Notes under the pieces: model-generated | Databases searched by the model: none | What the model was told of the DNA's origin: nothing | The model's input: only the letters and a program-made list of their open reading frames with translations | Virus record (IMG/VR): IMGVR_UViG_3300032214_000528 | Location: 32,001 to 96,000 of that record | Source of the DNA: a virus | DNA length: 64,000 bases | Strand: one strand, 5' to 3' | Position numbers and translations under genes: made by a program | Part shown: piece by piece, positions 1 through 64,000 of the stretch | Numbering within the stretch: position 1 is the stretch's first letter | Layout: every line of letters begins with the position of its first letter

Positions 1-1389
1 AACAACTGTCTGCAATGTGTTGGATACAGTTTCGACTGCTGCTGCAGACACAACGATCTGAGTCTCGGCAACGGCAACTACTGCTTCTGCTACAGCAGTA
101 ACTGCTGGTTCTACTGATGCAACTGCAGTTGTAGTAGCAGTTGTAGCAACTGTTTCAGCTGTTGTTGCAGCTGTCTGAGCTGTAGATTGTTCTGTTTGAG
201 CAGCAGTAAGAGTGGTTTGAGCTGTAGACAAAGCTGTAGTAGCAGTGGTTTCTGCTGTTTGTAAAGTTGTAAGAGTTGTTTGTTCTGTAGCTAAAGTAGT
301 AGCTGCTTCCTGAGCTGCAGCCACAAGAGCTGGGTCAGAAGTAGTTTTTGTTACAGCAATATTGTCAATAATATAGTAGTCAGCATCTTTTGTAATTGTT
401 AGTGTCTCAATAGATGAACCTGTTACTGTTTCAGTTGAGGTGTACCCGACCGCCTGTGTTTCAGCAGAAACGTTATTATCAATAATTGTTGTCGTGGTTG
501 AGCCATCTGTATTTGTTGCTGTCATAGTTGTATCGCCATTTTTAGCGTATACGCCCATGGTCACAGAAGTGACAGTTCCAGTGTTGCTTGGGTTTACATC
601 AATAACAACATCATTTGCTGGGTATTGAATTACAAGACCCGATCCTGATGTTTGAGCAGTATCCCAATTACCACCAATAGTTACACCAGATCCAGTAGTA
701 ACTGTGACTACACTTGTGGTGTTATTAGCAAAAGTTTCTGTAACTGTTGTAGATGTGTTTGCTGCAGCTGCCTCTGCTTGAGCTGCTGTTGCAGTTGTTG
801 CAGCTTGAGTAACCACTGCTTCTTGTATATCAACTGCAGTTGATGCTTGAGTTAAAGTTGTCTGTGCTGTCTCTACGACTGCTGTTTGGGTCGTAACTGT
901 GGAGGTTGCTTGGGCCAAAGTTTGATTGGCAGCTTCCGATGTTGCAACTGCTGTCTCCGCCGCTGAGATTGTTGAACTTGCTGTTTGCGTAGCATTGTCA
1001 GCTTCTGTTACTGAGCTAGTTGCATTTTGAATAGATTCTGTGACGACTGGAGAAGGTTCGGATATTGATGCTGCTACCTCCGCAATTTGAGTGACTTTTG
1101 TTTCTAGTGTTGTTACAGTAGATTCTGCTGTTGCTACAGCAGTTGACGCTTCAGCTAGTGGACCTTGCGTTGGTTCCACTGAAGTGTCTGTTGGGATCAC
1201 CTCCGACGACGCACTGGATACTGCATTAGTTGTTCCAGTACCTCCTTGATCTTGAGGAGTTGCGTCCTCAGCGATAGCGGCTGATGGGTTAAGTATCCCA
1301 TAGATGACAGAAGTTATTGGGACAGCAAGAATGTAAGAGATGGCTTTAGCGCCAATCCTTACTTTAACTTTGCGTAAACGAGGACGCAC
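1..1389 (-). CDS. Large secreted/surface Thr-Ala-Val-rich protein, partial (runs off the left edge; not in ORF track)
   Basis: Open frame read from GTG at 1389 to position 1: MRPRLRKVKVRIGAKAISYILAVPITSVIYGILNPSAAIA|EDATPQ..., a basic N-region, hydrophobic stretch and AxA cleavage site, then low-complexity T/A heptad-like sequence. Confidence 0.85.
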   Translation of the reverse strand, partial: MRPRLRKVKVRIGAKAISYILAVPITSVIYGILNPSAAIAEDATPQDQGGTGTTNAVSSASSEVIPTDTSVEPTQGPLAEASTAVATAESTVTTLETKVTQIAEVAASISEPSPVVTESIQNATSSVTEADNATQTASSTISAAETAVATSEAANQTLAQATSTVTTQTAVVETAQTTLTQASTAVDIQEAVVTQAATTATAAQAEAAAANTSTTVTETFANNTTSVVTVTTGSGVTIGGNWDTAQTSGSGLVIQYPANDVVIDVNPSNTGTVTSVTMGVYAKNGDTTMTATNTDGSTTTTIIDNNVSAETQAVGYTSTETVTGSSIETLTITKDADYYIIDNIAVTKTTSDPALVAAAQEAATTLATEQTTLTTLQTAETTATTALSTAQTTLTAAQTEQSTAQTAATTAETVATTATTTAVASVEPAVTAVAEAVVAVAETQIVVSAAAVETVSNTLQTVV

Positions 1390-2333: not shown

Positions 2334-3040
2334 GGAGCTACTCTTCCATTCTTAACGAAGGAATCGTAGGTAAGAGGCATAATCTCTTTGAAGATCTGCT
2401 CATACTTTTCAGCAACCATCTCGATCTCTCTTTGAGGGTAGCTTGGGAAGTGTGATCCTTCAGCAGTCATTCTTAAAGATAAGAAGTCCATTAAAGCTCT
2501 GGCATTCATAGTCACATAGGCGGAAGAGTAGATATTGACTGGGAGAACTCCTCTAGCAACTTCCCTAGCAACACCTGCTGCTAGCATGTCCATGTAGTTG
2601 GCATAAGCCTCTTTACAGGTTCTTCTATATGAAACCAAGGTAATAGCCATTTGTTCTGCACTGCCATCTTCAAATGTATAAGCTCCAGTCTTACCAACTT
2701 GGACCAGTTTGCGATCTGGACTCGGAACATAGAACTCTGGTTCCAAGACTCGATAGCGACCTGACTCTTCGTTGTAAGAAGCCATTCGATGGCGCATATG
2801 TTCACGCCAAACAAAGATGGGAGCTTTGACATAGAAGGTAAAGACAGAGTGCTCAAAGGGAGAGCCATGACGCTCTCTGGCTAAGAAGTTAATCAAGCCA
2901 GCAAGTTTCTCGTTCCCCTCAGTTGAGTTAAACGATCTTTCCCCTTGGGTAGATACCTTTGCAGCAAAAGCAACATCGTTATCTGAGGCACTGTGTTTTA
3001 CCAATTCGACAACTACATCTGATCGAAAGGTGAGGTCCAA
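2330..3040 (-). CDS. thyX: FAD-dependent thymidylate synthase ThyX
   Basis: HGSPFEH and RHRMASYNEESGRY (RHRx7S) motifs. Confidence 0.96.
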   Translation of the reverse strand: MDLTFRSDVVVELVKHSASDNDVAFAAKVSTQGERSFNSTEGNEKLAGLINFLARERHGSPFEHSVFTFYVKAPIFVWREHMRHRMASYNEESGRYRVLEPEFYVPSPDRKLVQVGKTGAYTFEDGSAEQMAITLVSYRRTCKEAYANYMDMLAAGVAREVARGVLPVNIYSSAYVTMNARALMDFLSLRMTAEGSHFPSYPQREIEMVAEKYEQIFKEIMPLTYDSFVKNGRVAP

Positions 3041-3253
3041 TTACTCCCCAGTCTTAACAGAACGAAGCTTTGCCTTTGCCTTGGCTTTTGCTGCTGCCTC
3101 ATCGCTTTTCTTGAAGAAGGTCATTGAAGCCTTAACAATAGCCAAAAAAGCAGCAAAAGTGATGATGCAGATGATTGCTACCAAAATCCAGCCAACTGCC
3201 CATAGTGAGATCTGAAATGCCAATTCGAATGGCAGTTTCCAATTGATGTCCAT
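3041..3253 (-). CDS. Hypothetical membrane protein
   Basis: 70 aa, one long hydrophobic helix, GAGG RBS upstream. Confidence 0.6.
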   Translation of the reverse strand: MDINWKLPFELAFQISLWAVGWILVAIICIITFAAFLAIVKASMTFFKKSDEAAAKAKAKAKLRSVKTGE

Positions 3254-3365
3254 ATTTCCTCGTTTCTGGGGTAATTCCCCGTGTAAATAAGCCTACCATA
3301 TGTACAGACTTAGACTTAACTATGTACAGTTTTTAGGGCTGTTTTATAAGCTTCACATGCCTTTT

Positions 3366-3512
3366 TCAGCCTATAGATCGTACAATCATTACCTTTTCCC
3401 AAGCGGCGCCACAGGCGTAGCACCAGTCGTCCTTATCTAGGAACATTTTGTTGTTTACAACGCCTCTAGCACTTGAAGGGCATTCAGAGCAGAAATAAGA
3501 AAACTGGATCAC
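3366..3512 (-). CDS. Zn-ribbon microprotein (48 aa, not in ORF track)
   Basis: MIQFSYFCSEC...WCYACG; two CxxC; start overlaps stop of the upstream gene (GTGA). Confidence 0.55.
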   Translation of the reverse strand: MIQFSYFCSECPSSARGVVNNKMFLDKDDWCYACGAAWEKVMIVRSIG

Positions 3513-3826
3513 TCTAACTCCTTCTCGATAGCCTGAATAGTTGGGCAGGGATACATTTGGCTAAATCCATTACTAGAACACTCTTTACATTGTTCTTCCC
3601 ATAATTCATTTTCTTCACCATCATACCCACCAGTAAACCCTAGAACTGGCTTATGCAATTCCACTACTGCACGAAGGGCAGGGTAAAACTTCCAATTGAC
3701 TGTATCATCGCCGCTTAACTCAATGATTCGTAAAGTTAACTCACTTTGGGTCATGCATTGTCCTCCAGTTTCTACCAAAGGCGATATAACACCCGACTCG
3801 GTTAAACCAATCTTCTTGATCTGCAA
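3509..3826 (-). CDS. Hypothetical phage protein (true start probably at internal MTQSEL)
   Basis: ALRAVVELHKP...CKEC...YPCPTIQAI, a common actinophage small-protein pattern. Confidence 0.6.
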   Translation of the reverse strand: MQIKKIGLTESGVISPLVETGGQCMTQSELTLRIIELSGDDTVNWKFYPALRAVVELHKPVLGFTGGYDGEENELWEEQCKECSSNGFSQMYPCPTIQAIEKELE

Positions 3827-3856
3827 TAAACCAAAATGGCTTGGCTAGTAACTTTC

Positions 3857-4126
3857 TCATTCGTCATCTCCCAAAAGCTCTCTCATAGCAGCAAGTGTGG
3901 TCTTGTTTGGTTTATTAATTGGACCTGCTCCAAAGTCTGAAATTACATGATAAGCAGTTTCTACATAAGAAAGAGTGTTAGAGATTAGATCCTCTGGGTG
4001 AGAGAGTTCACTAGTCCAACTACCTTGAAGATGCGCCTTCAAGCCGGGGATAAGCCTGTCCACGAACTCGTCAGGGGTCATATAACCTCTAGCCTTAAGT
4101 TCTTTATCAGTTGGTTGCTTTTTCAT
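3857..4126 (-). CDS. Hypothetical protein
   Basis: 89 aa ORF, overlaps neighbour ATGA-style. Confidence 0.55.
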   Translation of the reverse strand: MKKQPTDKELKARGYMTPDEFVDRLIPGLKAHLQGSWTSELSHPEDLISNTLSYVETAYHVISDFGAGPINKPNKTTLAAMRELLGDDE

Positions 4127-4626
4127 TCTTTATGACTCTTTTTTGCTTTATCTACAGATTCTATTTGCTTCTCCAGACAAGGTACGCAGACATTTCCATG
4201 GATAATCATGGCGCCAGCACTCACCATATACTCTGAAAATATAGAATGCCCGGAGGTAGCGCAAAAGTCACACATATCTGGTGTTTCCTTTTTTGCCTTT
4301 TTTGCTTGCTCTAGACTATCTACAGGACAGGCAAAAAGGTTTGGCATCAGCAGATGAGAATAAACTATTGATGGGGTAAATGGGTCTAGGTGTTTGCAAG
4401 CAACCACCGAGCTAATACCTTCTTCTGTGTGAGTGAACCTATACTTTTCCCCGAAATAAGTATCTAAGAAATTATATGAGTCATCTTCGCTACTATTTAT
4501 CCCTTTTCCTTTTATAGTCTCTCCAGCAGTTTCAAGAATACTCCTAGCGTGGGCAGCTGCACCTTCTATTTGATCTTTAAAAAATATATCTCTAATGCGA
4601 TCTTCACTCATTCGTCGCACCCACAA
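4123..4626 (-). CDS. Hypothetical protein with CxxC pairs
   Basis: 167 aa; CDFC, CVPC. Confidence 0.6.
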   Translation of the reverse strand: MWVRRMSEDRIRDIFFKDQIEGAAAHARSILETAGETIKGKGINSSEDDSYNFLDTYFGEKYRFTHTEEGISSVVACKHLDPFTPSIVYSHLLMPNLFACPVDSLEQAKKAKKETPDMCDFCATSGHSIFSEYMVSAGAMIIHGNVCVPCLEKQIESVDKAKKSHKE

Positions 4627-11164: not shown

Positions 11165-12733
11165 ATGATACAGACAAGAAAACTTGAAAAAATTACCGTA
11201 GTAGGCGGTGGAACTGCAGGTTGGTTAACTGCACTATACGTCAAAACATGCTTACCTGATTCAGAAGTAACTCTTATTGAGTCAGAGGAAATTGGTATCT
11301 TAGGGGCTGGTGAAGGGTCTACTCCTCACCTAGTCTACTTATTAGATCTTGTTGGTATTCCTGTTTCTAGGGTTATCAAAGAAACTGGTGCGACTATAAA
11401 GACTGGTATTAAATTCACTAATTGGAATAATGATGGTGAATTTTATTATCACGGGTTTGCAATGAGAGAGGGTTTTGGATTTAACTCTGTACAGATAAAC
11501 CCCCTTGCTTTATCGACATTATCTACATATGTTAGCAATGCTGTAAAGAATGAAAAGCTTGGCTTAGTTGACATGTCAGAAAAACTAGGGGAAAGCAATA
11601 AAGTTCCGTTTACTGTTAATAGAGATGCTCCAGCAGATGTCTCTAACACTATATTTAAGTTTAATAACTACGGAGATTTTTCTCTGCACTTTGATGCAAA
11701 AAAGCTAGCAGAGCTATTGAGATCTATTGGAGAAGACCGTGGTATTAAAAGAATTGAAGGGATTGTAGCCTCGACAGAAGAAGACTCGTATGGTGATATA
11801 AAAACAATTACACTGGAGTCTGGTGAAAAGGGAGAGACTGATTTTGTTTTTGACTGCACTGGTTTTGCGAGATTCCTTATTGGAAAAAAGTTTAAGTCTG
11901 AGTGGGACAGCTACTCAGAATATCTGCCTGTAAATGCAGCAATTCCTTTTTTCTTACCTGCTAACGAAAACAACACTCCTCCATACACAGAAGCAATAGC
12001 TATGAAGTATGGTTGGATTTGGAAGATTCCTCTACAACACAGGTTTGGTTGTGGATATGTCTACGACTCTAGTTTAATAACTGAAAAACAAGCTATGGAA
12101 GAAATAGAAGACTATCTTGGTTTTGAACCAGAGTATCCTAGAAAAGACAAAGGTGGCTTTAAATTTAGCGCAGGGTCATATAAACAACCTTGGATTAAAA
12201 ATTGTATTGCTGTAGGACTATCTTCTGGATTTATTGAGCCACTAGAGGCAACTTCTATTTGGGTAAGTATTATGTCTCTTAGAGAAGCGCTCTCTAACGT
12301 AGAGCTTATGACACTTAAAGACGATAGAGTTTCAGATGAATATAACTCTTACATGCAAAAAATTAATGAAGAAGTTCGTAACTTTGTATACTTTCACTAC
12401 ATGTCTAATAGAAATGACACGGAGTTTTGGGAAAAGTTCTCTGACTATAATAAAGCTCCAGAAGGAGTTAAAACTATTGTGAATAAGTGGTCCTATAGAC
12501 CTCCTAGAGTAGAAGATAAGTACGGTATTTTCTGGACTATTGAAAGTTGGTACGCGGTAGGTTGTGGAATTAACTTAGTTGATAAAGAAGTTATAAAGCG
12601 ATCTTACACTCATGCAGATGTGAGTAAGTGGGCTTTTGGTCAATATGGAGATTTAAAAGCAAAACAAGATGATGCTGTTAAACATTTTATGGACCACTCG
12701 CAATTCATAGAAGAGCTTAAGCATGAAATTTAG
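11165..12733 (+). CDS. Flavin-dependent (tryptophan-halogenase family) halogenase
   Basis: GGGTAGW FAD motif, GEGSTP, ATIKTGIKF (catalytic Lys region), WIWKIPL (WxWxIP), FIEPLEATSI. Confidence 0.92.
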   Translation: MIQTRKLEKITVVGGGTAGWLTALYVKTCLPDSEVTLIESEEIGILGAGEGSTPHLVYLLDLVGIPVSRVIKETGATIKTGIKFTNWNNDGEFYYHGFAMREGFGFNSVQINPLALSTLSTYVSNAVKNEKLGLVDMSEKLGESNKVPFTVNRDAPADVSNTIFKFNNYGDFSLHFDAKKLAELLRSIGEDRGIKRIEGIVASTEEDSYGDIKTITLESGEKGETDFVFDCTGFARFLIGKKFKSEWDSYSEYLPVNAAIPFFLPANENNTPPYTEAIAMKYGWIWKIPLQHRFGCGYVYDSSLITEKQAMEEIEDYLGFEPEYPRKDKGGFKFSAGSYKQPWIKNCIAVGLSSGFIEPLEATSIWVSIMSLREALSNVELMTLKDDRVSDEYNSYMQKINEEVRNFVYFHYMSNRNDTEFWEKFSDYNKAPEGVKTIVNKWSYRPPRVEDKYGIFWTIESWYAVGCGINLVDKEVIKRSYTHADVSKWAFGQYGDLKAKQDDAVKHFMDHSQFIEELKHEI

Positions 12734-31801: not shown

Positions 31802-32095
31802 ATGCAATACACATTTAGATTCAATGAAATTGCAATGAACCAAGTTTGGTTTGAGGCAAAAGATGATGAAGAGGCGAAGTCTCTTATGAAGCAACTAATG
31901 GAAGATGAAATCAACATCAACGACCTTCCTGAAGTTGGGGAACGCAATAGAGGAATTGACTTGGACTTCAGCGTTTCAATCTTGGAAGATGAAAACTTCC
32001 GAGTGGTCAAAATAGAATGTTGTTCTCACGACTCACATGAAAACTATTGCGAGTGCTGTATGAACTCTTGCAATGACTGTTCTAAATCGCTATAA
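31802..32095 (+). CDS. Hypothetical protein
   Basis: AAATGACGAAAGGGAA leader. Confidence 0.7.
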   Translation: MQYTFRFNEIAMNQVWFEAKDDEEAKSLMKQLMEDEININDLPEVGERNRGIDLDFSVSILEDENFRVVKIECCSHDSHENYCECCMNSCNDCSKSL

Positions 32096-51514: not shown

Positions 51515-53215
51515 ATGGGTATTTTCACCAACGACGATTCCACACCAGTCACACCCGCTCCTAAAAAATCTGCCCCGTCAGCTTTATCTACTATTTTTAC
51601 ATCTAACGCACAAACAGTTGCCTACTCAACTCCTCGGGCACTTACTGCTGCAGCAGCGCAGTTAAAAGTTAATGACAAGGGAGAATACGAACAGTTTAGA
51701 ATTCGTCGCTCTGCAGGTTCATCTGCATGGCAAGCCGAAGCTTGGGAGTACTACGACGCAATCGGTGAAGTTAAATATGCTTTTAATCTTGTAGCATCAG
51801 TTGTTTCACGAATTAGAATTTATGCAGCAGTAATTGATGATCCAGCAGAGGCACCAGTATCAGTTCGCAACTCAGACAAAGTCGATGATCGTCTTGCACA
51901 AGCAGCAGAACGTGCATTAGATAGGTTAAACTCTGCATATGGTGGACAAGCAGGATTACTTAAAGATGCAGCTCTCAATCTTTCAGTTGCGGGTGAGTGC
52001 TATCTCGTACAAATGCCCGCTCGTCCAGGACACGGTCTTCCTGAGTCTTGGGATATTCGTTCTGTTGACGAAGTAACAACAGATCCAAAAGGTGGCTTCA
52101 ATGTCATTGGTCGCCGTGAGCAGGGATCTAACTCACAAAGCTCTAACACTAATTTAAATACAAAGCTTGGTAAAAATGCATTTATAGGACGCATCTGGCG
52201 TTCACATCCTCGTTATTCAGATGAAGCAGATAGCTCTTTAAGAGGTTTGCTTGATCTTTGTGCTGAACTTCTTCTATTGAATAGGACATTCCGTGCGACT
52301 GCTCGTTCTCGCCTTAATGCTGGCGCTCTTTATCTCCCAGATGGTCTTTCGGTTGCGGCGCAAGCGGATCCAGACTACCCCTACGATTCTGAGGATGGTA
52401 TCGGCCCAAACTTTACTGCTGAAGAAGCAGAGGACGAATTCGAAGAACAATTAATGGATGCGATGACGACTCCAATCAGAGATGAAGAGTCTGCATCAGC
52501 AGTTGTCCCACTTATCATTCGTGGCCCAGCGGAACTTGGCGACAAGATTAAGCAGTTTAAGTTTGAGCGTTCATTCGACCCAGCACTTGCACAACGTGCT
52601 GACCGTGTTCTCGAGCGCATTCTTCAGGGACTAGATGTTCCAAAGGATGTTGTAACAGGTCTTGCAAATGTTAAGTACTCAAACGCACTTCAAATCGATG
52701 AAACTCTCTATAAATCACATATAGAACCTTTGATGCTGCTTATTGCAGATGCACTAACTGTTGTTTATCTTCGTCCTTATCTTATTGCAAGTGGTTTCAC
52801 TGAAACAGATGTAAATCGTCTTGTTGTTTGGTATGACCCATCAGCAATTGCAACTCGTAATGACCGTGCATCAGATGCTGATTCAGGATTTGATCGTGGA
52901 GCAGTTTCATACGACACATGGCGTCGTGCTCATGGCTTCTCGGATCAAGATGCACCAACTCCAACAGAGATGGCAATCCGTATGCTTTCAGAGCGTGGAG
53001 TGCTTACACCAGAGCTTACAGAAGCAATGCTTGGAGCAGTTGCACCAGATGTTATGGCTGCAATACGTACTGCACAACAAGAAGCATCTGTTGCCCCGCT
53101 ACCCCCAGAGGTTGAGCAAGCACTTCAGCAAGCATCTGCAGGTGCAGAGGCAACAGGAAATGTTGCTGAATCCCCAGATGCAGAGACAGCACCTGAGGGA
53201 ACAGAGAATGTCTGA
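51515..53215 (+). CDS. Portal protein (actinophage type)
   Basis: EAWEYYDAIGEVKY...SRIRIYAA, RIWRSHPR..ADS; 566 aa, at the head of the structural run. Confidence 0.8.
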   Translation: MGIFTNDDSTPVTPAPKKSAPSALSTIFTSNAQTVAYSTPRALTAAAAQLKVNDKGEYEQFRIRRSAGSSAWQAEAWEYYDAIGEVKYAFNLVASVVSRIRIYAAVIDDPAEAPVSVRNSDKVDDRLAQAAERALDRLNSAYGGQAGLLKDAALNLSVAGECYLVQMPARPGHGLPESWDIRSVDEVTTDPKGGFNVIGRREQGSNSQSSNTNLNTKLGKNAFIGRIWRSHPRYSDEADSSLRGLLDLCAELLLLNRTFRATARSRLNAGALYLPDGLSVAAQADPDYPYDSEDGIGPNFTAEEAEDEFEEQLMDAMTTPIRDEESASAVVPLIIRGPAELGDKIKQFKFERSFDPALAQRADRVLERILQGLDVPKDVVTGLANVKYSNALQIDETLYKSHIEPLMLLIADALTVVYLRPYLIASGFTETDVNRLVVWYDPSAIATRNDRASDADSGFDRGAVSYDTWRRAHGFSDQDAPTPTEMAIRMLSERGVLTPELTEAMLGAVAPDVMAAIRTAQQEASVAPLPPEVEQALQQASAGAEATGNVAESPDAETAPEGTENV

Positions 53216-54185
53216 CGCAAAAGCCCCTAAGAAAGATCAAATCAAAGGTTCTAAGAAAAACGCTAAAGGATCTGCATCAGGTTCTCGTAAAGTAGTTTTT
53301 TCTAAAGCAGTTGAAAAATCTCTTGCAGATAAAGTAGCAACTCACAACGAGAAAGCTAGAGAAGGCCGTCGTGCAACTCTAGGAATGCTCAAGGCTGTCT
53401 ATCGCCGTGGTGCAGGTGCTTACAGCACTTCACATCGTCCCGGTATGACTCGCAACCAATGGGCTATGGCTCGTGTTAATGCATTTTTGAAGATGCTCAA
53501 GTCTGGTAAGCCAGCGAACTCAGCTTACAAGTCAGATAATGACTTGCTCCCAGCAAAGCATCCTCGTTCAACAAAGAAGAACAACTCAATCACTGCTTCG
53601 GCTGGATTAGTTCCAGAAGAATCAGACCTAGCTAATGCTCTCATTGAGATCGCTGAGAAGTATGGAAAGTTCAACGAAGATGCAACAGGAATTTGGGCAG
53701 GATACACCCCAGCCGCAGAAAATAAATACAAAGGAATCGGAGTCAAGTGCTCTAGCTGTGTTCTATACATGGGTAACGGCTCGTGCAGAATCATCGAAAC
53801 AGAAGTCGAAGACGAAGGTAAGTGTCGTTTCGCGGTTATCCCAGATGGGGTCGTTGATGTCGGAGTTCTCGAAGGCGAAAAACTCGGAAACGAAATCCAA
53901 TCCTTAGAAGAGCTTGCACAGATTGCTGAAGAATATAGATTTGAACAAGAGTTGGCAGTAGAGATACTTCCTGAAGAAGAATACGACTCACCAGAACACG
54001 CTATTCTTTCTTTAGCAGAGTTTTCAGGGTTTGGTTATGAAGCAGAGCATGCAGTTCGTGCATCTTGGCTTCGTGGAGTTCGCAGCGGTGACGATCCATT
54101 CAAAAGAGCATCTAATTTTGCAATACTAGGTTATGAAAGCTTAGATTCAGATTTGTTACCTAAAAAGGGAGAAGATAATGTCTAA
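53208..54185 (+). CDS. Head-associated protein with conserved AVYRRG/QWAMARVNAF domain and a four-Cys motif
   Basis: TLGMLKAVYRRGAGAYSTSHRPG..QWAMARVNAFL..DLLPAKHPRST; CSSC-x8-C-x13-C. Confidence 0.7.
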   Translation: MSDAKAPKKDQIKGSKKNAKGSASGSRKVVFSKAVEKSLADKVATHNEKAREGRRATLGMLKAVYRRGAGAYSTSHRPGMTRNQWAMARVNAFLKMLKSGKPANSAYKSDNDLLPAKHPRSTKKNNSITASAGLVPEESDLANALIEIAEKYGKFNEDATGIWAGYTPAAENKYKGIGVKCSSCVLYMGNGSCRIIETEVEDEGKCRFAVIPDGVVDVGVLEGEKLGNEIQSLEELAQIAEEYRFEQELAVEILPEEEYDSPEHAILSLAEFSGFGYEAEHAVRASWLRGVRSGDDPFKRASNFAILGYESLDSDLLPKKGEDNV

Positions 54186-57100
54186 GAAGAATCAGAGACA
54201 GCTTCACGTTCTCTCTCAAAGCGAGACTACATACAGCACTCGTCAACAAGCACGTCTAATCCGTAACGAAGCACTACAAATGATTGAGGCAGCTAATGAA
54301 TTTACAACTAACACCCGTAGAGTTAATCGTCGCTCAGCTTTCCGTGTCATTTCTCGCTCTCTTCATTCTTCTGAAGGTCTCCCATTTTCAGTTCGTAAGC
54401 ACCAAGCGCTCACAGAACTCTCAAACTACATCTCACTTGCAAAACACAACAAGGTAGTTGGCTTAACAGCATTTAACACCGATCTTCTTCCACTTACACA
54501 CCCACGTTCGACTCGTGAACACTCTATGACGGCTTCAGCGATGATTCGTTCACATATTCAATGGGTTACAGATGATCCACGAATCACAGATGAGAACGCT
54601 AAGGCACTTATTGCATCTGCAATGCTTGCTCCAGCTAACTCTCCAGAAAAACTTTATGCACTTACACGCTTAGAGAACCTTCCACAAGGCCATGTTCCAC
54701 TAGAAGCAATGACTGCAGCATATGGTGGAGGAAACTCTGCTGCTGCAAAGCGTGCTCGTGTTGCTCTCCAGCTCCGCGACCGTTTGGGCCGCTGGGTTGA
54801 GATGTTTGGTGGCCTTGGTATCAAGGTAAAGCGTCGTGACGGAAGCACAGCAGCTCTTACAGGTCGTGCAGTAGGGCAGAACATCTTTAGTCCACAACTT
54901 GCAGATGTCGAATTAGAAGATGGACGCATTGTTGCAGTACCAATTCGTCAAGCACGAGGTGCAACATTCCTTCCAAGCCCTGCAGCAAAGAAAGATGGCT
55001 TTACACCTGCTGGTTCAACAGCAGATGACATGGATGACCCAATTATCGATGAAGCAGATCTTACATTTATGGAAAGTCCTAGCTCATTTGAGAAAGATGA
55101 GAGAGGAAGCAAGCAGGGAACAACAAAATATACTGATCAAGCCTACGATGTAGTTAAGTTTGATGATAACAAGCGTGCTCTTGCAGATTTAAGTGAGACA
55201 AACAAACTTAGAGCAGAGCGTGACTTAGACGATGCAGCAGTTGATAAGCAAGGCGAGACAGATCCAGACTCAGGTAAGCAATTTTGGGATCCAGAGAAGC
55301 CAATCTATGCAGTCTCACGTCGTGGCGGAACTCCTTTTGCATATACACAGAACTGGAACGATGCACAGCAAAGAATTCAAGCAGATCAAAGATTCCTTGA
55401 TGAAGAAGAGGGTCGTACACCTCTTGCGAGAATTACTCAGGATGACAACACTCCTGAAGACGAGACTCCACTTGTAGATCAGCAAGATAAGTTTAAGAAG
55501 GAAGAGATCGCACGTCTTCCAGAACAAGAAACAACAAAAGCTCCATCTGATTTTAAATACAAAGTTCCAGAAGATACTTATGAAGTATCTGATCCAACAG
55601 CGCCATACCGCTCCGTATCTGAGTATGACGATCCTGCATCTCTTGCAAATATGTTCCAAGGTGATGAGCTCATTGATGGTCTTGATGATGCAATGGATAC
55701 TGGTCTTGGTCGCCTCACATTCCCAGATGGAACAGATTCAGATGGAGAACCTACTGGTGGAGAGCAAGAAGTTCCAGCAGAAGCAATTCTTAAAGCAATT
55801 GATGAAAAGGGCGGGGATGCAGAACTTGCACTTGCTCAAGCATACGATAAGCGTCTAGGGACAACAGAAAATGAAGACGCACTTGCTGCAAAGCGTGAAG
55901 CAGATAGAGGAGCAAAGGTTGGCGAGCCAAAGAAGCTCGGCGAAGTATTCGACGAAGTAACAAAGGCTCCAGAGCCAGAAGCAGAAGCACCAGTTGAAGA
56001 AACTCCTGTTGCAGAGATCCCAGAGATTACTGAAGATGCAGAGCCATCCACATATCCAGCTCTAATTGATGGACTTACAGAAGAAGAGCAAGCAGAGTTT
56101 GAGAAGAGCAAAGACTACACTCCATATCTCACAGAAGATGCTCCAGTCGAGTGGCCAGAAGGTTTTACACCGCCACAAAATAGAATTCTTAGCGAAAAAG
56201 AGCGTGCACAAGCTTTAGAAATTGCTAGCTCAGATATTCCTGACGAAGATCTAGCCGAGTCATACAACGGTGCAATCAAAAATAAATATGACGAAGATGG
56301 TTATGCACCATTTGGTGATTTAGACGAGAACAACGAAGTGCAGACAATTCAAGTACCAAGTGAAGTTCTTCGTGATGCAATGAAGCTTCGCAACTTTGAC
56401 ATGGACGAAACTAATCAACAGGTTGTTGACGGAACTTGGGATGAAGTAGACCCAGAAGATGAAGTTGCATTGGAAGAAGAACCTGTAGCAGAGATTCCTA
56501 CACCAAAGACTCCAGATGAAGGCAAGGGAACTAAGTCTGGCAAAGATCCTCTCAAGGAAGGTTGGGGATCGGAAGACTGGATTGACGAAACATCTAAGGA
56601 TCCTCGTTTCCACGAGATGCTTAAGAAGAATAAAGATTTTGCAAGACTTACTGGTTTCTTTAACGATCCAACATTCGATAGCCCTCTTCTCTCTGACTAC
56701 CAAGACAAAGATATGGAAGGCTTTGAGTCTGGCAGTGAAGTAGAGGCAATCGATCTTGGCGAGTATGGGTTTGAACCAGGACCTTCAGCCCGTGTTCAGT
56801 ATGCACTTGATATTTTGCAAGATCCTACACAATCAGCTCGTGCTGGTTTCAAGGACTGGAGAACTGGTGAGCGCTCAGCAGAGAACGAAAGAAATATTCT
56901 CAAGGCAGCAGATGAGCAACTAGATCTTGCTAAGCAGGATCTCTCTGAAAAAGATGTTATTGAAAACAAAGCAATTGATTCTGTCCGTGCAACTCTTGCA
57001 AAAGAAATTGCAAAGCTTGACAAGCAGATCGAGAAAGATAAGAAGGCTGAGGAAGAAGCAAAGATTGCTCCTCAGGTTTCTTACAAACTAAGAGGAGATC

Positions 57101-60100
57101 GCTTAGAGCTTCGCTCTGGTAAGAAGGCTCCATTCAGAAGACAAGATGTAAAAGACTTTTTAGATGATAATGGTTTTGATTGGAACCCAGATGCTAAGGC
57201 TGAAACAAAATCTGGTATGGATGAAGCAAGCGCTAAGAAGTTCCTTCGTGATTTAAGAGATAAATATGGTATTGATCTTCTTCCAAGAGAAGGACAGCCA
57301 CCAATCGACCTTGAATCAAAGGACGAAGTAATTGAAGCTCCTTCAACTCCTGAAACTCCATCTGCAAAGCCAAAAGAAAAGTCTCTCAAAGAAAGAGAAG
57401 AAGAAGAGTTCGGTAAGTTCTTACCTCTTCCAGATCCCTTACCTGAAGGTTGGGTAAAAGATGAAGAGCGTGGATTCAACGAAGTTTATTACATGCAAGC
57501 TGTTGAAAACGAAAACGGCGATAGAATTGTTGGAACATACGGTAAGGATGGAAGTAGAGACCCATACTGGACAGTAAGCGCTGACTTTGACTCGCCAGAA
57601 TCATTTAAGTCTTTTGAAGATGCACTTGATTTCTATAACAAAAATTCTGGAAAGCAAACAGAAGACAGTGCCGAACCAGAGACTTCTGAAGACACAACAC
57701 CTGTTGAAGATGTAGTTGAGCTATCCCCTACTCTAAACGAAAAATTACTAAAGCGTGATGGCATCCAGATGGTAAAGATCACTGGCCCAAATGGAGAAGA
57801 GATTGAGACACCAGTCTTTAATCTTCGTGGTCGCCCTATGGTTTTAATCAATGTTAATGGTGTACGCATACCGTTCTACATTAGCTCGGGTAAAGGCGGT
57901 AAAGCAGGTGTTCCTGTTGGAAAGTGGTATCCAATCTTTGGAATCGGTACCGATGGCTGGTTTAATAAGGGCAACGAAGAAGAGATTAACAACTACTTCG
58001 ATAGTCCAGAGCTAAGAGAGGTAGCTGAATGGCTTAACTCTAATATTGGAGATATCCGTAAAGAAGATATGCCAGAGTCTGACGAAGTCACTGACGAGCT
58101 TCGTGCACAGATAAACCAAGACCTATCTCCAGGTCGTTACTATGAAAACGCTGTTGTCTACGGAAATAGAGCTCTTGCCCTTGCAAAAATTAGGGGAGAT
58201 GAAGAAGCAGTAAAACAAGAAGAAGCAATTCTTAAAAAATACCTAGACGATATAGCAAAATTTGAAGCTGAAAAGAAAAAGCAAGAAGAAGAAGGACAGG
58301 AAGAGCCAACTGTAGAAGAAGTAGTTCCTGAAGAAGAAGAAGTAAAAGAGCCTGTTGCTGAAGAACCTGCGGCAAAAAGGAATATCTTCCAAGAATCACT
58401 TGACATAATTCAAGAGGGACTTCTTGATGCATTGTCAGAAGAAGGTCCTAACATAACTGTCTCAGAGTTAGTAGATAGACTGAAGCGTAAGCTAAAGGGT
58501 GATGACAAAGTTGTAGGAGATTATGGCACTAGAGGTGACATGATTAGCAAGCTCATGTGGGCTAAGTGGGGCGCTGGTTTCTGGAGAAACGAATCTCCAT
58601 ACATTAGAAGATCCATGAGCGAATACAAGTCTGAATTAAAGAAGCTCTCAGACGAAGAACTTATTGCATTAGTTGATATGTATTACGACGAGATTGATGC
58701 TCGTCTTGAAGCTGAGAGAGAAGCATCACGACCAGTTGAACCAACGCCGCTTACTCCTGAAGAAGCTGCGGAAGTAGAGAGAAAGCGTAGAGTTAAAGAG
58801 CTTCGTGATAAGAAGCGCAGAGAGCGTGAAGACAAGCTTCTAGAAGAAGATGATAAGGCTAAGGAAGAAGAAGAAAAGCCAACCCCTGCAACCCCTGCAA
58901 CCCCTGCAACCCCTGCAACCCCTGCAACCCCTGCGAAGCCAACTCCTACAACCCCAGAAAAGCCTAAGCCATCTGATTACGAAGAAGACACTCCTGATGG
59001 ATTTGTTTATGTTGACAAGAGCGACAATGACGTTAAAGATGGAGATGAAATTAATCTCCCTAGTGTTGGCTGGGTAAAAGTTAAGAGAAAGGTTTTCCTT
59101 CCTGGTAGAACCACTGCAGATGTTGTCTATGAAGATGAAAATGGTAATGAAGGTACTGGTTTCTTACCTAGAACAGTTGAGACTCGTGCTAAGCAAGCTC
59201 CTGCTGAAGAACGCAATCGTAAGACTCCAGCAAAGCTTAGAGTCGGAGAAGAAGTCTATCTTGTTGATAAAGATGGAGATGGTCCTGGCTGGGTAAAGGT
59301 TCTAGAAGTAAAAAAGAGAAATTGGAATTCAGGGAACAGTAAAGGCGACCAAACCACATGGGAAATATGGTACGAAGATGCAAATGGAAAGCGTAGTCTT
59401 TGGACATATAACTACTGGAGCAGTAGCAGTTGGGGCGGAGACGGTCAAACTGGTAAGTTCCCTACTCGTCCTGCAACATCTAAAGCACCAGAACCTGTAG
59501 AAGAACCTTCAGTAACAGTTACGCCTCGCATTGCTGCATCTAGAACAACAGATCTTAAGCCAGGCGATGTTATGACTAAGGACTTCTTTACAGTCACAAA
59601 TGTAGAGCAAGGATTCGAGAAGAAGCGTGATGGAGAAATGGTTCCAGCTTCTCGTGTCACTGGTTACTATCCTGGCGGAGTAGAGCAGTCAAGCAAGCTT
59701 TGGGCAGACGACGTTTTATTTGATGTATATCGTGATGTAACTCCTCCTGCAAAGGGAGATCTTCCAGAACTTAATCAGCCAAAGATGGGTGATTATGGAA
59801 AGCTCACAAAGGTCAATGGCGAATGGGAGCTAAAAGACCCAGCTGAGCAAAAGCAATTTGAACAAGACATGGAAAAGTATCAGGAGCAACTATCCACACA
59901 GAAGGCTCTTTGGGAAGCTCCAGTTGTTGAAGTTCCTGTAAAGGAATTTACACCTGAAAACACTCTCCACGTTGTCAACGCACTTGGTAAAGATCTCAAG
60001 CCAAACGATATTGCATTCCGTCGTGACGAGAATGGTGAGCTCAGCGAGTTTTTCGTTATTGAAGAAGTTCTTCCAGGCACAGTTATGGTCCCTCGTGCAG

Positions 60101-63100
60101 ATGGAAAGCCAGCAGAAGAGAAGGTTCAAATCCGTGGATACTATCCAGGACACGAATCACAAGTTAAGTCTTGGAAGACTGGCACATCTGTTGAAGTTCT
60201 CCGTGGGGAACAAGCAGCAAACATTCCTGCAAAGGGTGATAAGCCAGCAATCGATAGCATCGAGCCAGGAACTCTCAAGGGTCAGGCATACAAAGATAAG
60301 AACGCAGAAATTTCAGCATTAAGAAAAGAAGCTGGCAAGGCATACACACCTGATCTAACAGCCTCAGAGATTCCTGCAGTACTTGTAGAAAGACCTAATA
60401 GCTTTAATCGTGGAAACCGCCCAGCGTTCTTTGGCAAGGCTGCAGAACTTGCAAACCTCAAAGATGGTAAAGCAATCTCTGATGCTCTTAAGGGCAAGCG
60501 AGTTGTCTACTTCGACTTTGAAACAGTAGGAACTGGAAAGTTTGATAACGACAATCCTGATGCACCAATTCAGGTTGCAGCATCTGTCTGGGAAGGTGGA
60601 GAAAAGGTTGGAGAGATCAACCTATTCATTAACCCAGGAGAGCCTCTTGGGGACTATTACTATAAAGAAGATGAAAACGGAAACAAAGTTCTTGATCCAG
60701 AAAAGCTTCTCAGCTCAGACGGGCAGACAGTTGATGATGCATTCTTAGCATCTCAACCATCTATTGAAGATCAGCTTCGTGCATTTGCAGAGTTTGCTGG
60801 ACAAGATGCAATCTTTGTTGCACACAATGCAGAGTTTGATACAAACACATTCGAGAAGTGGGCTCAGAAGCTAGGTATTGACTACAACATGGATGGTGTT
60901 ATCGATACTCTTGAATTAGCAAAGAGCATGACACCAAAGGGCAACAAGCTCGGTCAAGTTGCTAAGCGCTACGGTATTGAGAAGACAGATGAAGAGTGGC
61001 ACGATGCTAGAACTGACTCTGAGGTTCTCCCAGCAATCCTAGAAGGTTTGCTTGGAGATATGAAGCCTGACAATAGAGAGTTTGATCCTGCAACTCGTCT
61101 TGCAGAGTTTGAAGCTAAGCGTTCTTCTTACAATGAAAAGCTAGAAGCATTTAAGAAGCAAGAAGCAGATCTTGCTATGGCTGAAGCAGTCAAGCGTGGT
61201 ATGGCTGGAGAGCCTGTATCTATTGATGAAATGCTTGGCAAGACCAAGACAACATCTGGCTTTGGTTCTGAAGGAAGCACAGACTCTGCTGAAGAGTATG
61301 CATATGAATCAATCTTTGGTGGAAAGATTAACAACTCTTGGATCGAAGATGATGAAAACACATTCGTTGTTGACGAAGGTGCAGCAACTGTAGGAGATAT
61401 TAAGATTGGTGACTTCGTACCTGCTGAGGGTGGCGGATACCATGAAGTTGTTGACCTGCTTGCAGACCCAGAAGATCCAAACGGAACTATCGTTGTTCGT
61501 AAGATTGTATCTAGCGGTTTGCTATACAGCACACGAGTTACAGAGAAGAAGTCTCCAGGAATTGGTTGGTCTAACGGCAAGGTTCTTAAGGGAACTCTCC
61601 GTCGTCGTAACGAACTAGCTGGTAAGACACCTGCAGAAGTTAAAGCTTTAGTATCTAAGCCAGTAGTAGTTGCTCCAGAACCTACAACAAAGGAAAAGAC
61701 TCCTACACCTAAGGGTAAGAAGTCAATCACTCCAGAAGAGACACAAAGTGTCGTCTCGGATGCGATTGAGGCAATTACATCTGGTGCTAAGTCAGATTCA
61801 TCTGTTGAAGATGCGGTAAAGGGTCTTCCACTTGATGACACCACTAAGTCTGCAGTTCTTGCAGATCGTGAAGATGCATCTATTAATCACCTATCAGCAG
61901 ACGGTGTTGCTCTTAAGGTTGGCGACAAGGTTCGCAACGTAAAGAATGGCCGCATGGGTGAGGTAAGAGCAATTCTTACAACATACGGACCTCGTGGATA
62001 CAAGAATTACGTCAAGGTTAAGTTTGACGATGCTGCAAAGCGTGAAAATGTTTCAGCAGGTTCACTACAGATCATTAATCCTGATGACGGTGGCGGTTTC
62101 TTCACAGATCCAACTCCTCCTGCAACTGGAGAGCCAGTAAACCCTAACGAGACACCAAAGTCTGCAGAAGAATTAACTTCACTTCTTACTGGAGATGTTA
62201 CAGATAACACTCCTGCAGTTGAAGTTCCAGAAGAGCCTGTAGTTATGGATGCTGAAGATCGAACAAGAATTTGGAAAGAAAACGAAGAAAAGAGAATGAA
62301 GTACGCTCTTGATCTTAACTATCGCCAAGTAAGCCCTGAAGCATTAGAGGCACTTACAGCAGCAGTTCAAGATATATCTCAATATGACAAGGGTCATCAA
62401 AGATCTGTTACAGCATTTATGCCAAGTCTTTCTACTGGATTGCCAGTAGAAAGAACATTTACGTTTGTAAAGCCAAGTAAAAAAGATCTTGAGCGTCGTG
62501 AGGACATGGAAGCAGACGATATTATCGTTATGATTGGTCCTCGCAATACTGAAGCAATTATTAAGTCAGATGGAAGAATTCTTTATTTTGATAATCCATC
62601 TGTTCCAAACTGGAACTTTAGTGTTAGATCTCCAGATCTATACTCAGCTATTGAAAAATCAGACGAGGTCACTTTTCCTTTAGGGGAAAATCCTGATCTT
62701 CAAAATATGGGAATGATTTCAAATAATCAAGAGTTCCCTAAAGATGCTCTTGGAAGTCCAGATGAGATAGAAGATCCAGATTTTGTTGTAGATAGCCCTG
62801 ATGCAGAGCCAAAGGGAATCAAGCCAACCAAGCAACAGCAAGCAGTTATAGATGCTGTAGTTGCTGGCAAGGATGTAATTGTTCAAGCTCTTGCTGGAAC
62901 AGGTAAGACCAGCACACTGAAAATGGCTGCAAAAGCTGTTGCAGAAAAAGATCCAGACAAAACTATTCTTTACATTGCATTTAACAAGGCTGTAGCTGCA
63001 GAACTTAATGCAGATCCAGATCGTCCTTCAAATATGATTGCACGAACCAATACTCAGGTTGCTTGGCACCATTCACCTAAGTGGATGCAAAAGCGTAGCT

Positions 63101-64000
63101 TTGACAAAACACTGCTTTCACTGCCAACTGATGTAGCTGATCATCTCGAGATCGGACCAGTTAAGGTTACAGAGATTAAGAAAGACGGATCAAAGGTAGA
63201 AGCAACTCTTTCAAGTAAAGATGTCGTTGGAGTAATTCGTCAGGCAGTAACAGCATTTGCACAGAGTGCAGATGAAAAGATTATGCCTCAGCACTTCACA
63301 GATAACTTTGTAGACATTCCTGAAGTGTTTATTGACTACGCAAACCGCTGGTGGGACGACATCTCAAGCCCTAAGGGTAAGCTAGCGATGAATCAGTCTT
63401 ACCCAGAAAAATATGTTCAGCTAAATGGCATAGATGTAACAATGTCTCCAAGTGAAGCGGGTGCAAACCCAGCAACAATGATCCCTGCAGCAGACATTAT
63501 CTTCTTTGATGAAGCACAAGATATTAATGATGTTGCTGGCGATTGGGTTCGTAAGCAAACTGTACAAAAAGTATTCGTTGGCGATGGAAATCAATCTATC
63601 TATGGTTTCCGTGGAGCAAAGGATCAACTAGATACTCTTGAAGGAGCAGATAAGCTTCAAATCACAGAGTCGTTCCGCTTCGGTCCAAACATTGCAGCAC
63701 CTGCCAACCGTTTCCTTGCTGTTGCTGGAAAGCCAGAAAGAGTTGTTGGAGCTGGAAAAGATCAAGGTAAAGTTGTAGAAAGCCTTGACGAGATGCCAGA
63801 TCCAGATGCAGTTCTTGTCCGCACAAACGGTGGTGGATTTAAGGCAATGCTTGAGTATCTTGAGCAAGGAAAGACTGTCGGAATTAGTCAATCAACTAAG
63901 ACAAGACTTGAAGAAGTTATTGACACAACAAGTTGGCTCATGGGCGGAAAGAAGGGCTCAAAGCCAGCTAAGTACAACGCAGAAATTGGAATGTACGACT
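54178..64000 (+). CDS. Giant multidomain (polyvalent) protein, partial, >3270 aa, with DEDDh 3'-5' exonuclease and UvrD/Rep SF1 helicase domains
   Basis: Frame read without a stop from ATG 54178 to the window end. Exonuclease: YFDFET (~60510), VAHNAEFD (~60820), HDARTD (~61000). Helicase: ALAGTGKT (62887), FFDEAQD (63502), [20 protein letters not shown]. Confidence 0.92.
58882..58935 (+). repeat. 9-bp tandem repeat encoding a (TPA)6 linker
   Basis: ACCCCTGCA x5 plus ACCCCTGCG. Confidence 0.95.

Follow-up and report, generated by a model that had tools for sequence, protein, structure and literature searches.

A 4,200-residue polyvalent protein encoded in the head module of a freshwater actinophage as candidate virion cargo

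Several of the enzymes that phages carry in their heads need N-terminal or partner-mediated targeting and protease processing. Of all phage weapons, polyvalent proteins are predicted to arrive in the host first; to our knowledge, very few of them have been studied, and none from freshwater actinophages. The class as such was described by Iyer, Burroughs, Anand, de Souza, and Aravind (2017, J Bacteriol; PMC5512222), and those encoded among portal-terminase late genes are predicted to be packaged and delivered together with the DNA (PMC5512222). We analyzed a giant gene on a 64,000-nucleotide (nt) stretch of viral DNA, called the window here, which covers positions 32,001 to 96,000 (C1:32001-96000) of the 135,031-bp IMG/VR record IMGVR_UViG_3300032214_000528. 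Positions are those of the window, continued as window-equivalent positions beyond its end. Like the published class (PMC5512222), the protein strings together unrelated enzymatic and DNA-binding domains, contains the dyad of ArdC-N and a zincin of the MPTase type, appears to have more than one MPTase, and is encoded among head and late genes. From its context and composition, we consider it probable that this giant is a phage-type polyvalent protein that is made with the head and most likely packaged and ejected with the DNA into the host. We favor this reading because of the head genes that surround it, an N-terminal header common to a second head-module protein, a virion-like composition, and the ArdC module. 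The original prediction for this stretch, a large polyvalent phage protein belonging to the head module, is thus borne out by the hallmark dyad found beyond the window, by synteny, by the location of replication genes elsewhere in the genome, and by a composition free of cysteine.

The giant gene is a single unbroken plus-strand frame that begins with an ATG at 54178 and is still open at the window end, with 3,274 amino acids (aa) inside the window, in agreement with the more than 3,270 aa first claimed. The rest of the open reading frame (ORF) was obtained from the full record, where it ends at window-equivalent position 66780, 2,780 nt beyond the window, for a total of 4,200 aa (window-equivalent 54178-66780, which is C1:86178-98780 or L002:178-12780; + strand). 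The two ends of the record share a 123-bp overlap, which looks like a circular assembly. A full-length search recovered 36 clusters (2,830 to 4,183 aa; 35 to 90% identity) in which exonuclease, UvrD, and ArdC are arranged as in the giant; their contigs reach 139 kb and derive from JGI, ENA, Logan, and NCBI. Because about 36 independent metagenomic clusters carry this architecture, the ORF is a real gene and not a chimera. Block-wise BLAST showed the family to be a mosaic in which aa 11-755, 1762-2650, and 2883-3857 are common to almost all members, while a module named PFY (see below), a small barrel at aa 3862-3960, and a C-terminal HExxH domain are gained and lost; in other members the small barrel sits between exonuclease and helicase. 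As read from its predicted domains, the giant is a polyvalent protein in which a family-specific leader is followed by an exonuclease, a helicase, a complete ArdC, and a putative second zinc protease.

Domain content was taken from Pfam, PHROGs, NCBIfam, and PDB sequence searches, which were mutually consistent. The intact DEDDh exonuclease of the original prediction is recovered as a 3'-5' exonuclease of the DnaQ/PolC-exo type at nt 60505-61029 (aa 2110-2284; + strand), with a Pfam RNase_T score of 56 bits (cutoff, 24; E = 9e-15) and best PDB sequence matches to the PolC exonuclease (2p1j; E = 1.4e-9) and the epsilon subunit. The Exo I D-x-E, Exo II D, and Exo III H-x4-D residues are all present (D2113, E2115, D2221, H2275, and D2280) and align in 86, 86, 85, 68, and 68 of 92 rows, respectively, the remainder being gaps except for a single D-to-E change at D2221. 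Since the five DEDDh residues are conserved across the family copies, the exonuclease is probably a working nuclease. The UvrD-type helicase, earlier placed from about 62820, begins at nt 62830; this UvrD/Rep-type superfamily 1 (SF1) domain runs through nt 62830-64000 in the window and on to window-equivalent 64647 (aa 2885-3490; + strand). Pfam recognizes UvrD-helicase (PF00580; 41.7 bits, cutoff 23), AAA_19, and UvrD_C (PF13361; 36.5 bits, cutoff 25.6), and the domain also matches phrog_1967 (E = 2.7e-72) and, among solved structures, FBH1 (E = 2e-22), which with UvrD is its best solved relative. The helicase motifs can be read in the sequence (AGTGKT at aa 2906, FFDEAQD at 3109, a 13-residue motif at 3135, TAHQSKGLQW at 3436, and VAVTRA at 3479), and the polarity (SF1A) is inferred from the family.

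Two further enzymatic units were absent from the original prediction because both lie beyond the window. ArdC-N (window-equivalent 64804-65070, aa 3543-3631; + strand) matches PF08401 ArdcN with 102.5 bits (cutoff, 22.6; E = 2.4e-29), and MPTase-PolyVal (window-equivalent 65272-65613, aa 3699-3812; + strand) matches PF18818 with 99 bits (cutoff, 27.5; E = 2.7e-28). Together they form an ArdC module that matches phrog_7245 (E = 2.7e-67) and aligns with residues 10-291 of R388 ArdC (6sna; E = 1e-47), with both domains in order and the metal site kept (HELAH at aa 3733, TGH, and EELIAE at 3764, that is, HExxH plus the downstream Glu ligand). The second HExxH domain occupies the C-terminus (window-equivalent 66100-66780, aa ~3975-4200, HEIAH at 4146; + strand); its aa 4073-4190 weakly resemble NCBIfam TIGR04338, the Rv0185-like HExxH metallohydrolases (24.9 bits, E = 1.5e-5, below the cutoff of 90), and stand-alone homologues of the domain are named TIGR04338 by JGI. 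Pfam searches at E <= 5 over aa 291-1041, 1442-2074, 2275-2874, and 3825-4200 gave nothing credible, with DUF6958 and PcfK below thresholds. No methyltransferase family was found in Pfam, PHROGs, or NCBIfam scans of the giant. The likeness to P1 DarB that had been suggested was rejected as more than an analogy, since there is no methylase and the helicase is of the UvrD and not the DarB type.

The giant lies in a head module. The portal protein (51515-53215, 566 aa; + strand; phrog_776, E = 4.9e-111) is 81% identical to those of the related loci L008 and L009. The giant had been described as next to the portal; its place in the head module holds, but a gene for a 325-aa DUF5824 protein (53208-54185; + strand; Pfam PF19141, E = 1e-9 at aa 23-113) intervenes, overlapping the giant's start by 8 nt. 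Downstream of the giant follow a 240-aa gene (window-equivalent 67008-67730; + strand) and a 1,576-aa protease-scaffold gene (window-equivalent 67727-72457, L004:1727-6457; + strand), with an S78-type prohead protease region at aa ~800-1245 between large flanks. Then comes the 695-aa, cysteine-free major capsid protein (MCP; window-equivalent 72620-74707, L004:6620-8707; + strand), in which a strongly acidic, Ala/Glu-rich N-terminal extension of about 270 aa ends in APVTASADNLN ahead of the HK97-fold part and looks, by sequence, like a delta-domain or scaffold-like propeptide. In a comparison of eight related loci, the order DUF1360, portal, DUF5824, giant, ~236-aa gene, protease-scaffold (~1,450 to 1,590 aa), MCP was kept in the five metagenomic relatives L008, L009/L010, L016, L017, and L018, and Actinomycetia phage DSL-LC01 and Microbacterium phage Big4 have a giant gene in the same portal-to-capsid slot. 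Genes for replication and nucleotide metabolism (a primase-helicase, an Mre11-like exonuclease, and ribonucleotide reductase) lie elsewhere in the genome. The MCP is 74% identical to that of DSL-LC01, which is predicted to infect Actinomycetia, and 47 to 54% identical to those of large Microbacterium, Arthrobacter, and Gordonia phages; among Mycobacterium phages, hundreds of records match at below 60%. The source is an uncultured freshwater (lake-water) actinophage of about 135 kb.

The family-defining header (nt 54178-55047, aa 1-290; + strand) consists of a helical DUF5824-like leader at aa ~18-135 and, later, a small beta barrel at aa 213-255. It contains an 11-residue motif (nt 54481-54513), MTASA (nt 54526-54540), and, where the original prediction had placed it, a 12-residue motif at aa 198 (nt 54769). 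A hidden Markov model (HMM) built from residues 18-135 of the giant family alone matched the DUF5824 neighbor (E = 1.9e-12) and no other gene in the six-frame ORF set of the phage, and BLASTP of the DUF5824 protein against the giant's N-terminus gave 6e-06. The Pfam DUF5824 model matches the neighbor but not the giant itself; homology of the giant's leader (its first ~120 aa) to the DUF5824 gene is thus supported at the sequence level via the intermediate profile only. Leader and neighbor also have in common the motif DLLPxxHPRST followed by [IM]TASA. A literature search found no paper on DUF5824. The AF2 model of aa 1-760 had an overall pLDDT of 71.6 and values of about 80 to 90 over aa 20-180; with this fold, Foldseek against PDB and BFVD and wide VIA-align searches gave only generic helical bundles (Z <= 6.0, E >= 5e-3). 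No match to MuF or SPP1 gp7 came from Pfam searches of aa 1-290 at E <= 5 or from PHROGs searches of the entire giant; by analogy, the header may act like MuF though it is not a detectable member. A complex prediction for the portal monomer with the header returned "no answer" (score, 0.00), which is evidence neither way.

The header defines a larger family in which the cargo varies. An exhaustive phmmer search with aa 1-290 against 1.84 billion representatives gave 295 representative clusters at E <= 1e-3, 87 of them at <= 1e-30. Among the best 148 of these 295 matches, all but one carry the header at their own N-terminus, and 119 are themselves giants of 1,780 to 7,004 aa (median, 2,912). 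By BLAST against the giant, the exonuclease block is common to 54 of the 119, the helicase to 23, and ArdC to 12. Pfam annotation of an unbiased sample (n = 15 giants) found RNase_T in six, UvrD in three, ArdC and a PI3/PI4-kinase-like domain in two each, and DnaG primase and ADP-ribosyltransferase in one each, so the DEDDh exonuclease is the commonest cargo of the header family. The syntenic giants of DSL-LC01 and Big4 had no Pfam domain at all. Examples of other cargo in relatives are an ADP-ribosyltransferase (P0033) and a PI3/PI4-kinase-like domain (P0053). Separately, three giants of about 4,200 aa (P0037-P0039) combine a UvrD helicase with NUDIX or sigma-70 region 4; they have no header match and are almost cysteine free.

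Composition sets the giant apart from the other enzymes of its phage. There is no cysteine in its 4,200 aa, compared with 0.95% in the rest of the predicted proteome, where about 40 would be expected (naive binomial P ~ 3e-18). Cysteine content is 0.22% in virion-type proteins and 0.90% in recognizable enzymes, and in this respect the giant (0%), though built of enzymes, resembles the former. Cysteine is likewise absent from nearly all close family members and from 67 of the 119 header-bearing giants. The giant also diverges much faster than portal or capsid genes, as expected at a phage-host interface: compared with the L009 phage, identity is 81% for the portal, 80% for the MCP, and 78% for the DUF5824 protein but 45 to 54% for the shared blocks of the giant, with modules gained and lost.

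A short motif may connect the leader with head maturation. In seven of seven phages, xTA[SA]A occurs in the giant's leader, in the DUF5824 neighbor, at the MCP propeptide junction (aa 269), and in the protease-scaffold (aa 1087), where all six related phages have an identical peptide, HYDDTASAIADVH (at aa ~1087). This is a candidate prohead-protease site at which the leader could be removed after loading. The tetrapeptide [TS]ASA is a common one: the predicted proteome (40.6 k residues) contains it eight times, whereas chance would give about two. Strict TASA/TAAA covariation between giant and MCP was not upheld, as L008 and L016 have TASA in the giant and TAAA in the MCP. Going further, and with more doubt than conviction, we propose that the DUF5824-like leader (DLLPxxHPRST...xTASA) could be an undescribed capsid-loading address, comparable to MuF or the T4 capsid-targeting sequence (CTS), that the prohead protease would remove at xTA[SA]A. 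Large actinophages would by this means load cysteine-free, swappable cargo of 2,000 to 7,000 aa (exonuclease, helicase, ArdC, primase, ADP-ribosyltransferase, or kinase-like) for coinjection.

The following sequence of events would fit the packaged polyvalent protein. The header, with its DUF5824-like leader of about 120 aa, would dock the giant inside the procapsid, and the leader may be cut off at the conserved xTASA, a site that also marks the MCP propeptide junction. The giant would then enter the host along with the DNA. Once inside, the complete ArdC unit could bind single-stranded or exposed phage DNA and counter type I restriction, as is established for the family by plasmid ArdC, and the UvrD-type helicase and DEDDh exonuclease may have as their substrate the incoming DNA or host proteins attached to it. 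More speculatively, the two zincin domains and the VGSEGKTGEEIA linker motifs might free individual modules by proteolysis. As for end resection or circularization, the activities named in the original prediction, no result favors either.

Several points weigh against a packaged and ejected giant. A literature search found no virion proteomics for relatives, and DSL-LC01, the closest GenBank record, is itself metagenome assembled, with the homologue called hypothetical. A helicase and a proofreading-type exonuclease would also fit a role in replication or repair. R388 ArdC works when made in the recipient cell, and its antirestriction effect does not depend on protease activity (PMC7213743); ArdC homology alone therefore does not demand coinjection. 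The 460-kDa giant would have to traverse the tail channel, for which the N4 virion RNA polymerase is a precedent as a large ejected protein (PMC5512222). For the header, no relation to MuF/SPP1 gp7 or to a solved fold could be detected. Low cysteine content is also found in all virion-type proteins here and in some giants without the header (P0037-P0039), and as a sign of packaging it is suggestive, not diagnostic; a literature search found no report that connects the ejection of phage proteins with a loss of cysteine.

Possible, if rather doubtful, is a refinement in which the packaged giant is a polyprotein: once it is loaded into the capsid, either the prohead protease or the giant's own pair of zincins would cut it into effectors, at xTASA and VGSEGKTGEEIA-type motifs, in the head or after ejection. 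Two HExxH domains occur in one chain, and Iyer et al. propose MPTase autoproteolysis in polyvalent proteins (PMC5512222). The xTA[SA]A distribution across seven phages described above would suit such processing. So would the linker motif: the giant has three copies of the form VG(S/E)(E/Q)GxTG(E/D)EI (window-equivalent 65707-66108; aa 3844, 3935, and 3961; + strand), which flank the mobile small barrel, a module placed elsewhere in other members, and lie ahead of the optional C-terminal zincin. In 35 of 35 family members, including those of 35 to 39% identity, ArdC is followed by VGSEGKTGEEIA or a near variant, often near the C-terminus. However, cleavage is predicted from motifs, one of which ([TS]ASA) is common and does not strictly covary in its S/A position; the linker motif, rather than being cleaved, may just as well serve for docking or mark a recombination joint; and the N4 virion RNA polymerase is packaged unprocessed (PMC5512222).

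We regard it as unlikely that the giant is instead a late cytoplasmic DNA-processing enzyme that is not packaged, acts on replication or recombination intermediates or on packaging concatemers, and is encoded in the head operon for timing only. DnaQ/PolC-type exonucleases and UvrD-type helicases are indeed classic replication and repair enzymes, and a scan of the large ORFs turned up no DNA polymerase, so that replication of the phage may depend on the host or on auxiliary functions. Arguing otherwise are the complete lack of cysteine, in contrast to the cytoplasmic enzymes of this phage, and the occurrence of the header in a second head-module gene, as well as the finding that in other phages this header is joined to a primase, an ADP-ribosyltransferase, or a kinase-like domain, or to no known enzyme. 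The giant further evolves much faster than core genes, and ArdC dyads typically belong to proteins that are transferred along with DNA (PMC5512222).

A structural internal head protein (an inner body, a DNA-spooling or a pressure-buffering scaffold), with enzyme domains that are secondary or inactive, seems quite improbable to us. Its great length, its acidic low-complexity linkers, its coding position between portal and scaffold-protease, and the lack of a recognizable enzyme domain in the DSL-LC01 and Big4 giants would fit such a protein. But the exonuclease residues are conserved in the family copies, and helicase motifs I to VI and the ArdC metal site are intact, which points to selection for enzyme activity. 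An assembly chimera or frameshifted pseudogene, the condition named beforehand as refuting and suggested by the unusual length only, is ruled out for practical purposes by a frame open for 12,600 nt and by collinear full-length homologues on many independent contigs from four sources.

Between the header and the exonuclease, the probably packaged giant consists of smaller modules and linkers. A conserved middle region of small alpha/beta modules and acidic linkers (nt 55075-56442, aa 300-755; + strand), in which AF2 confidently models aa 290-410, 470-580, and 680-740, is common to 91 of the 119 header-bearing giants. The long acidic linkers that had been noted are found as four windows with at least 30% D+E (aa 561-660, 711-810, 1331-1430, and 1491-1580). 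A perfect (TPA)6 repeat (nt 58882-58935, aa 1569-1586; + strand), read from the translation, lies within a Pro/Lys/Glu-rich linker that divides the variable middle of the giant from the barrel-exonuclease block. In that block, small barrel-like modules were recognized in the sequence upstream of the exonuclease (nt 59125-60447, aa ~1650-2090; + strand), and the block co-occurs with the exonuclease in 38 to 54 of the listed header-bearing matches. The repeated small barrels of the original prediction are partly supported, by one tandem pair, the modules at aa ~1826-1867 (RVTGYYPGG...PAKGD) and 1984-2027 (QIRGYYPGH...PAKGD), which proved homologous on direct comparison (pairwise E = 2e-5); a self-BLAST of the window found only the VGSEG motif.

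The compact domain earlier noted at ~57870-57972 is part of a real, optional module, the PFY domain (nt 57760-58137, aa ~1195-1320; + strand), present in 7 of the 119 giants and with stand-alone homologues of 178 to 236 aa; the 19-residue motif and GWFNKG quoted for it lie at aa 1232-1265 (nt 57871-57972). AF2 models the domain as a beta sheet plus helices (pLDDT, 69; pTM, 0.71). No related fold was found by Foldseek against PDB (E >= 0.37) or by wide VIA searches (Z <= 3.4), ESM Atlas gave no usable match, and neither a PDB sequence search nor Pfam at E <= 5 returned anything; the domain matches the interior of a function-unknown PHROG of about 1,957 positions. One stand-alone PFY protein (L013:6001-6615) is encoded on a crAss-like contig recoded with TAG as Gln (ENA TONG22-1 scaffold_166; 56 kb), two genes downstream of the crAss_MUZ muzzle gene and amid genes for proteins of 588 to 3,224 aa. 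In crAss-like phages, capsid cargo proteins are encoded in that region.

Three other genes of the record were observed in passing. The large terminase gene (genome 27614-29023, - strand) lies about 55 kb from the portal gene and on the opposite strand. Beside it, a 1,217-aa ORF (window 1-1389, genome 29736-33389; - strand) lacks cysteine and matches no PHROG. At 11165-12733 of the window (+ strand) lies a flavin-dependent tryptophan-halogenase-like gene (phrog_2928, E = 2e-109), a homologue of which is annotated in DSL-LC01.

If the header is an address domain separate from its cargo, its presence in cultivable Microbacterium phages makes the loading of huge enzymes into capsids and their ejection testable and perhaps usable for protein delivery. 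Cargo swaps may show which enzymatic activities are useful at DNA entry, the commonest being the proofreading-type exonuclease. Chains of thousands of residues without cysteine may more generally mark proteins that must be stored in a capsid and threaded out of it, and a phage-borne, full-length ArdC links the antirestriction strategies of plasmids and phages.

Individual known systems resemble the giant by location or by domain. DSL-LC01 has in the same slot a 3,289-aa protein (WJZ48510) with 35% identity to the header over aa 2-233, and Microbacterium phages Big4, Cece, Zooman, and A3Wally (Big4 gp74, 1,756 aa) have there proteins that have at least the QLRDRxGRW header region in common with the giant; unlike the giant, they lack the set of exonuclease, helicase, and ArdC. 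As in R388/pSa ArdC (IncW; 6sna and 6i89; PMC7213743), a single-stranded-DNA-binding N domain is followed by an HExxH/E metallopeptidase. R388 ArdC, which counters type I (HsdRMS) restriction (PMC7213743), is a 297-aa plasmid protein, whereas the giant, a phage protein of 4,200 aa, has ArdC as one of its modules, close to the C-terminus, with type I antirestriction predicted from homology. We liken the giant, too, to the large head-carried enzymes that act at DNA entry, namely, P1 DarB, T4 Alt and the internal proteins (IPs), N4 virion RNA polymerase, and the SPP1 gp7/MuF fusions; it differs from DarB and the other ejected proteins in that no DarB-type methyltransferase, MuF, or T4-type CTS was detected and in that its packaging is inferred.

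With the polyvalent proteins, finally, the giant family shares the pattern of a constant header and interchangeable cargo, and the domains in the 15 sampled giants belong to the repertoire known from that class (PMC5512222). Its header, in contrast, is not MuF, portal, or a Pfam-recognized LPD but includes a DUF5824-like leader common to the neighboring gene. The main text of the class description mentions no DnaQ-type exonuclease, DUF5824, or cysteine content, and UvrD-like helicases are reported there only for the giants of actinomycete plasmids (PMC5512222). Four features thus go beyond the published description of the class: the header resembles DUF5824, the exonuclease is the commonest cargo, cysteine is completely absent, and candidate cleavage and linker motifs are conserved.

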